From: Escherichia coli
GTDB lineage: Bacteria; Pseudomonadota; Gammaproteobacteria; Enterobacterales; Enterobacteriaceae
Assembly (NCBI RefSeq): GCF_003334305.1
Contig: NZ_QOWS01000002.1
Direction: 5' to 3' (one strand)
Length of the DNA stretch: 64,000 nucleotides
Below, one piece after another: positions 21,940 through 23,022 of this stretch. The notes under the pieces were generated by a model, which searched no databases, was not told the origin of the DNA, and was given only the letters and a program-made list of their open reading frames with translations. A program made the position numbers and the translations under genes. How positions within the stretch are numbered: position 1 is the stretch's first letter; each line of letters opens with the position of its first letter.

Positions 21940-23022
21940 ATGGCTCAGCTTTCGTTACAACATATTCAAAAAATCTACGATAACCAGGTGCATGTGGTGA
22001 AGGACTTCAACCTGGAAATTGCCGATAAAGAGTTCATCGTGTTTGTCGGCCCGTCGGGCTGCGGTAAGTCGACCACCCTGCGCATGATTGCCGGGCTTGA
22101 GGAGATCAGCGGCGGCGATCTGTTGATCGACGGCAAACGAATGAATGACGTTCCAGCCAAAGCACGCAATATAGCGATGGTGTTCCAGAACTACGCGTTG
22201 TATCCGCATATGACGGTTTACGACAACATGGCGTTTGGCCTGAAGATGCAAAAAATCGCCAAAGAGGTGATTGATGAGCGGGTGAACTGGGCGGCGCAAA
22301 TTCTCGGCCTGCGTGAGTACCTGAAACGCAAGCCGGGCGCGCTTTCCGGCGGGCAACGCCAGCGTGTGGCGCTCGGGCGGGCGATTGTGCGCGAAGCGGG
22401 CGTGTTTTTAATGGATGAACCGCTCTCTAACCTTGATGCCAAGCTGCGCGTGCAAATGCGCGCAGAGATCAGCAAGCTGCACCAGAAGCTGAATACCACC
22501 ATGATCTACGTGACCCACGATCAGACCGAAGCGATGACCATGGCGACGCGGATTGTGATTATGAAGGATGGGATTGTTCAGCAAGTTGGTGCGCCGAAAA
22601 CGGTTTATAACCAACCAGCGAATATGTTTGTTGCCGGATTTATTGGATCACCGGCGATGAATTTTATTCGTGGCACGATCGATGGCGATAAATTCGTTAC
22701 GGAAACGCTTAAATTAACCATTCCCGAAGAGAAATTAGCGGTTCTGAAAACACAGGGAAGTTTGCATAAGCCCATCGTGATGGGAATACGTCCGGAAGAT
22801 ATTCATCCGGACGCGCAAGAGGAAAATAACATTTCCGCCAAAATTAGCGTGGCAGAATTAACCGGTGCGGAATTTATGCTCTACACCACGGTTGGGGGGC
22901 ACGAGTTAGTGGTCCGTGCTGGTGCGTTAAATGATTATCATGCAGGAGAAAATATCACTATTCATTTTGATATGACGAAATGTCATTTCTTTGATGCAGA
23001 AACGGAAATAGCACTTCGCTAA
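21940..23022 (+). CDS. ycjV: ABC transporter ATP-binding protein (MalK-like), apparently intact
   Basis: 360-aa uninterrupted ORF with Walker A (GPSGCGKST), signature LSGGQRQR and Walker B (LMDEP) plus a C-terminal MalK-type domain. Confidence 0.88.
   Translation: MAQLSLQHIQKIYDNQVHVVKDFNLEIADKEFIVFVGPSGCGKSTTLRMIAGLEEISGGDLLIDGKRMNDVPAKARNIAMVFQNYALYPHMTVYDNMAFGLKMQKIAKEVIDERVNWAAQILGLREYLKRKPGALSGGQRQRVALGRAIVREAGVFLMDEPLSNLDAKLRVQMRAEISKLHQKLNTTMIYVTHDQTEAMTMATRIVIMKDGIVQQVGAPKTVYNQPANMFVAGFIGSPAMNFIRGTIDGDKFVTETLKLTIPEEKLAVLKTQGSLHKPIVMGIRPEDIHPDAQEENNISAKISVAELTGAEFMLYTTVGGHELVVRAGALNDYHAGENITIHFDMTKCHFFDAETEIALR

Follow-up and report, generated by a model that had tools for sequence, protein, structure and literature searches.

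Among the ATPase subunits of CUT1-type sugar importers, the closest described relatives of YcjV are the multitask ATPase MsmX of Bacillus subtilis and, in Escherichia coli, MalK and the UgpC subfamily. The ycjV gene is the tenth of the ycjMNOPQRSTUV-ompG operon, which is repressed by YcjW, a protein that kojibiose releases from DNA in vitro (PMC6599011). For YcjN, the binding protein encoded in the same operon, no ligand is known so far (PMC11543891). In K-12 MG1655 (NC_000913.3) the annotation splits the locus into two pseudogene pieces, ycjV (b1318) and ymjB (b4524). There is accordingly nothing new in the pseudogene status, which is recorded in the K-12 reference annotation: "the pseudogene ycjV locus" is routinely used by metabolic engineers for cassette integration (PMC10380740), an evolution study lists ycjV among pseudogenes (PMC4786092), and PGAP labels the gene "frameshifted" in related genomes. 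A comparative study reports an intact ycjV-type transporter gene in K-12-like isolates that is missing from MG1655, and cites work tying the gene to intestinal colonisation (PMC8009128). Earlier work has also purified and assayed intact YcjV of other E. coli; the full-length protein accumulates as a stable product and retains ATPase activity (Leisico et al. 2020, PMC7658222). Recent K-12 work on YcjN and "YcjNOPV" (PMC13053599) and on the YcjW regulon (PMC6599011) leaves the frameshifted ATPase gene unmentioned, and a literature search for "ymjB" found nothing relevant.

We analysed the copy of this gene in a stretch of 64,000 nucleotides of E. coli DNA (contig NZ_QOWS01000002.1, assembly GCF_003334305.1), called the window below. 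A sequence-only reading of this DNA had described ycjV as a full-length gene for an ABC ATPase, uninterrupted over 360 codons, with every nucleotide-binding motif and a MalK-type C-terminal domain, and had taken it to be annotated as a pseudogene in K-12. The ORF listing agrees on the length: positions 21940..23022 on the plus strand hold a sole uninterrupted ORF, with an ATG start, 360 codons and a TAA stop. This is the intact wild-type allele, 100% identical at the DNA level to the copy in strain cq9 (NZ_CP031546.1), where it is annotated "ABC transporter ATP-binding protein", and its product is the protein WP_000057978.1. An AGGA Shine-Dalgarno sequence, read directly from the DNA, lies at 21930..21933 (+), 6 nt 5' of the ATG and 3 nt past the stop codon of ycjU (21924-21926), with 13 nt from that stop to the ycjV ATG. 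A chance ORF was ruled out by full-length matches to the structures of MsmX (6yir, E 1.5e-149) and MalK (1q12, E 8e-100).

A pattern search on the translation located all six nucleotide-binding motifs, canonical in form and order. Along the plus strand these are the Walker A motif or P-loop, GPSGCGKST, at codons 37-45 with Lys43 (22048..22074), which aligns with the P-loop of MsmX; the Q-loop, FQNY, at residues 82-85; the ABC signature LSGGQ at codons 135-139 (22342..22356); the Walker B motif VFLMDE at 155-160, carrying the catalytic Glu160, together with the D-loop SNLD at 163-166 (22402..22437); and the H-loop histidine at codon 193, within THD 192-194 (22516..22518). The same search showed Walker A and B to be free of inactivating substitutions. 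Pfam recognises an ABC transporter nucleotide-binding domain (ABC_tran, PF00005) at residues 21-162 (E 2.6e-31), followed by OB_MalK at 236-288 (E 5e-14) and TOBE_2 at 282-351 (E 1e-9). The last two make up the MalK-type C-terminal regulatory domain, residues 236-360 (22645..23019, +), which aligns end to end with the regulatory domain of MsmX, so the domain architecture is also as the reading had described it. The window allele is probably functional, to judge from its sequence and from the ATPase assay of a sibling full-length allele (PMC7658222).

The position of the gene between ycjU/pgmB and ompG and its high nucleotide identity make it the orthologue of the b1318 locus. The b1318 and b4524 annotation bears out the statement that K-12 ycjV is treated as a pseudogene, and the two genes differ in length, the K-12 copy being one base shorter. 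In the pairwise alignment of the window and K-12 genes (1083 versus 1082 nt), we found 21 substitutions and a single 1-nt gap, which falls in a run of G. The run, at gene nt 955-960 (22894..22899, +), is G6 in the window and G5 in K-12, and this is the lesion that splits the K-12 gene into ycjV' and ymjB. In K-12 the frame shifts after codon 319 and ends after 322 amino acids, the remaining 37 codons forming the ymjB fragment. The K-12 product lacks the 41 C-terminal residues encoded by codons 320-360 (22897..23019, +). These make up roughly half of what TOBE_2 matches and roughly a third of the regulatory domain, the counterpart of MsmX residues 236-365; the product keeps the whole ATPase core with every motif, and the other two thirds or so of the regulatory domain. 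The extent of the loss was gauged from Pfam boundaries and the MsmX alignment; the single-sequence AlphaFold2 model was unusable (mean pLDDT 34.7).

When the K-12 frame is repaired, its protein differs from that of the window at three residues (A232S, G273E and L359I), none of them within a motif. By the Nei-Gojobori method, the two genes are separated by 18 synonymous and 3 non-synonymous changes, with a dN/dS of 0.045; the full-length gene has therefore evolved under purifying selection, and the K-12 lesion is recent. We consider it very probable that the ycjV of the window is the ordinary, ancestral, intact allele of a gene for the nucleotide-binding subunit of a CUT1-type ABC importer, lying in a YcjW-repressed operon, and that K-12 has lost one G from it.

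Loss of function in K-12 can reasonably be inferred. It could nonetheless be that the difference has no physiological consequence, either because the 322-residue product still energises YcjNOP or because MalK or UgpC substitutes for it, and the intact allele would then be no better a model than that of K-12. In E. coli, UgpC and MalK can partly stand in for each other, and the K-12 product retains all the ATPase motifs along with most of the regulatory domain. Furthermore, a 2025 study in E. coli K-12 described vanadate-sensitive, ycjN-dependent uptake and attributed it to "YcjNOPV", with the frameshift unmentioned (PMC13053599). Against this alternative, that uptake was tracked through the accumulation of ethidium bromide, which is an indirect assay (PMC13053599). 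The K-12 product has lost the C-terminal part of its OB/TOBE region from residue 320 onwards (TOBE_2 spans 282-351), likely destabilising both the fold and the dimer, and the low dN/dS indicates selection on the full-length protein. Moreover, kojibiose as the only carbon source fails to support growth of MG1655, even when YcjW is removed, as PMC6599011 relays from Mukherjee et al. 2018. Taking both sides together, we regard a difference without consequence as unlikely.

A stronger claim in the opposite direction would be that the K-12-specific frameshift is the reason, or one reason, why the ycj cluster looks cryptic in MG1655, and that wild strains with the intact allele, the source of the window among them, can import and catabolise its true substrate. 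We put this forward tentatively, and consider it rather doubtful. If true, it would cover such examples of the cryptic look as the failure to grow on kojibiose with ycjW deleted and the want of a transport phenotype or ligand for YcjN; the frameshift might contribute to the kojibiose failure of MG1655.

To place YcjV among the CUT1 ATPases, we compared it with profile models and solved structures. YcjV scores 484.2 bits against NF008653, the NCBIfam model of the UgpC subfamily, above its cut-off of 432; this is a subfamily model, and passing it does not imply specificity for glycerol-3-phosphate. Against NF008233, the MalK equivalog model, it scores 431.6 bits, below the cut-off of 568. By this second score YcjV is a paralogue and not MalK itself. 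The C-terminal domain and the NF008653 score together mark it as a sugar-importer ATPase of the CUT1 type (MalK/UgpC/MsmX-like), and its top structural match is MsmX, clearly nearer than E. coli MalK by the E values given above.

This likeness raises the alternative that YcjV is shared among several importers, as "multitask" ATPases of the MsmX/MsiK type are, and is not the dedicated partner of YcjNOP. Its nearest solved structure is indeed that of a multitask ATPase, and ycjV stands apart from the permease genes within the operon. But the E. coli Mal and Ugp CUT1 systems have ATPases of their own, and the residues proposed as the multitask signature, D77, R104, E110 and K154 of MsmX, are N77, Q104, V110 and G154 in the YcjV of the window. 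Experiments in B. subtilis agree with the absence of the signature found in multitask ATPases (MsmX/MsiK/MsmK type): YcjV could not replace MsmX for AraNPQ or GanSPQ, and the msmX null was not complemented (PMC7658222). Sharing of this kind thus seems very improbable. Because the signature residues are absent and msmX is not complemented (PMC7658222), we would file YcjV as a dedicated CUT1-type ATPase rather than as a shared one of the MsmX type.

We then asked which of the two alleles is the norm in the species. The ycjV gene is present in 5,002 of 5,426 complete E. coli genomes. A 99-nt probe from the window, centred on the G run, occurs exactly in 3,060 of these 5,426 genomes, and the corresponding 98-nt (G5) probe from K-12 in 367. 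When the other probe matches were sampled at even spacing, every full-length one spanned 99 nt, that is, G6 plus a SNP. Among 60 G5 records listed, 2 were clearly non-K-12 and most others were named K-12 laboratory derivatives; the derivatives among those listed include MG1655, DH5alpha, DH1, C600, J53, RR1, NCM3722 and AG100. The exact protein of the window, WP_000057978.1, is found on at least 1,000 public contigs, and the 25 kb around ycjV are 100% identical to commensal strain A7 and nearly so to several other strains. The window carries the ancestral, majority allele of E. coli, and K-12 is the exception. An artefact of sequencing or assembling a homopolymer, as the source either of the intact frame or of the K-12 frameshift, is hardly credible, for although the single-base difference lies inside a G run, a typical error site, and the G5 runs found on different haplotypes in strains 2014C-3051 and 08-00022 could be assembly errors, the identical G6 context recurs in the 3,060 independent complete genomes, the identical G5 context in 367 genomes that include many independently sequenced K-12 derivatives, and the curated MG1655 record retains both pseudogene pieces.

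These counts bear on the suggestion of the sequence-only reading that this strain would be a better model for the physiology of the cluster. The part that stands is the contrast with K-12, ycjV being intact here and frameshifted there; what falls is any privilege of this strain, since almost any non-K-12 isolate would serve equally. A revertant or horizontally acquired copy was considered and rejected, since G6 is found across O157:H7, O26, O111, B strains, ATCC 25922 and many commensals, and the flanks are collinear with K-12.

The two non-K-12 genomes with the G6-to-G5 frameshift (loci L007, NZ_CP027338.1, and L008, NZ_CP013662.1; ycjV at 597-1678 of each locus) carry it on different ycjV haplotypes and are labelled "frameshifted" by PGAP. 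In 2014C-3051 (5.6 Mb) the haplotype is 2 nt from the window allele, and in 08-00022 (5.2 Mb) it is 5 nt from K-12. Two explanations are open to both cases, repeated slippage within the G run and misassembly of the homopolymer. As a lesser variant of the claim about the cryptic cluster, the G6 run would be a recurrent slippage site at which E. coli lineages repeatedly lose the transporter. A further genome, that of strain 19213 (NZ_CP135077.1, 2772-3098 of locus L009), recorded as a "human" isolate, has a ycjV identical to that of K-12 and an IS5 transposase gene directly downstream of ompG, in the usual place of ycjW; the strain probably derives from K-12, IS5 having inserted into ycjW or close to it.

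The rest of the operon was examined by tblastn with K-12 proteins. The genes of the presumed partner transporter, at 13029..16052, are ycjN for the binding lipoprotein (13029-14321) and ycjO and ycjP for the permeases (14342-15223 and 15210-16052), all on the plus strand and all full length, with 99.3-100% identity to the K-12 proteins and no gaps. Five enzyme genes lie between ycjNOP and ycjV. The operon ends with the outer-membrane porin gene ompG (23067..23972, +; also in the ORF list), beyond which lies ycjW (24083..25081, -), encoding the LacI-type repressor of the ycjM-V-ompG operon, a role taken from PMC6599011. Collinearity with K-12 extends from puuP to ydbK, and ycjM, N, O, P, Q, R, S, T, U, ompG, ycjW and ycjX are all full length, with 97-100% protein identity to K-12; no component, be it the binding protein, either permease, the ATPase, the porin or the repressor, is therefore broken in the window. 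Over 18 kb of the cluster, identity to K-12 is 98.2% with three indels, two of them intergenic, the sole coding one being that in the G run of ycjV.

Divergence from K-12 is patchy. It amounts to at most 8 mismatches per kb over the psp genes and ycjM-N, reaches 44 per kb in the 3' part of ycjT (19003-21270), where YcjT differs at 22 of 755 amino acids, and is 30-49 per kb over ycjW-ycjX (24083-26633), a pattern that suggests a recombination mosaic. Between ycjV and ompG, at 23028-23045, there is a perfect 7-bp GC-rich hairpin (stem GGGGGAA and TTCCCCC, loop GGCA), 5 nt past the stop of ycjV and 21 nt short of the start of ompG. The 66-nt fold has an energy of -15.1 kcal/mol (z -2.3) and the hairpin has no T-run on the plus strand; it may serve to stabilise or process the mRNA. 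A promoter scan around ycjV gave 6 sites against 5.8 expected from shuffled sequence, which is no excess, and an Rfam scan gave no RNA family near ycjV, its matches elsewhere in the window being FnrS, MicC and McaS.

Further from the cluster, the window differs from K-12 or cq9 in several mobile or repeated elements. The Rac prophage of K-12 (23 kb, at ttcA) is missing, ttcA being joined directly to the uspF/ompN side, and a 43-nt stretch at this junction (51819-51861) that matches both ends of the K-12 prophage looks like an unoccupied attachment site. IS5F of MG1655 is absent from the ynaI-ynaJ gap, at about 37159-37162. The puuR-puuC spacer (at about 3760) is some 122 bp shorter than in K-12 and is short in cq9 too; K-12 has probably gained a repeat element there. 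Finally, abgR and smrA are separated in cq9 (locus L005, NZ_CP031546.1, 3220-14502) by an island of some 12 kb with integrase, primase and antirepressor genes, and this island is absent both from the window (junction at about 45742-45761) and from K-12.

On the preferred reading, that of an ordinary intact allele, YcjV would act as follows. The protein has a RecA-like/helical ATPase core in its N-terminal part and an OB/TOBE regulatory domain in its C-terminal part. If it works as MalK2 does in MalFGK2, and as type I ABC importers generally do, two copies of YcjV would pair and sit on the coupling helices of YcjO and YcjP as a homodimer, which would close on two ATP with the Walker A motif of one subunit facing the LSGGQ of the other. 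The partnership with YcjNOP is presumed from membership of the same operon. The substrate, presumably a glucoside, would enter through OmpG and be delivered by the lipoprotein YcjN, and ATP hydrolysis, involving Glu160 and His193, would drive its import through YcjO/YcjP. In K-12, the loss of one G from G6 cuts the protein short at 322 residues, so that it lacks the last 41 residues of the regulatory domain.

Both the observation of a full-length gene and its interpretation are upheld, with the feature being an ordinary wild-type gene and the K-12 defect known before. In practice, negative results obtained in K-12, such as those on kojibiose growth and on the transport substrate, may not hold for E. 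coli generally, because those studies used K-12 with its frameshifted ATPase gene. Tests would be fairer in any wild strain, or in MG1655 once its missing G is put back.

Among the closest known systems, the YcjV assayed by Leisico et al. 2020 is WP_000057985.1, another RefSeq allele of the same gene that encodes WP_000057978.1 here. With MsmX (PDB 6YIR), YcjV aligns over its full length and has in common all the ATPase motifs and the C-terminal barrel; unlike msmX, its gene lies inside one operon with its presumed transporter. MalK (PDB 1Q12, 2R6G) and the UgpC subfamily have the same two-domain architecture, and the homodimeric ATP-switch mechanism is presumably alike, but YcjV belongs to a different operon, falls below the MalK equivalog cut-off and gives no evidence for regulation of the MalT or EIIAGlc type. 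The K-12 ycjV'/ymjB pair occupies the same locus, between ycjU (pgmB) and ompG, and differs from the window at 21 of 1083 nt; where the window has G6 and encodes 360 amino acids, K-12 has G5 and encodes 322 amino acids followed by ymjB, an orphan tail of 37 codons.
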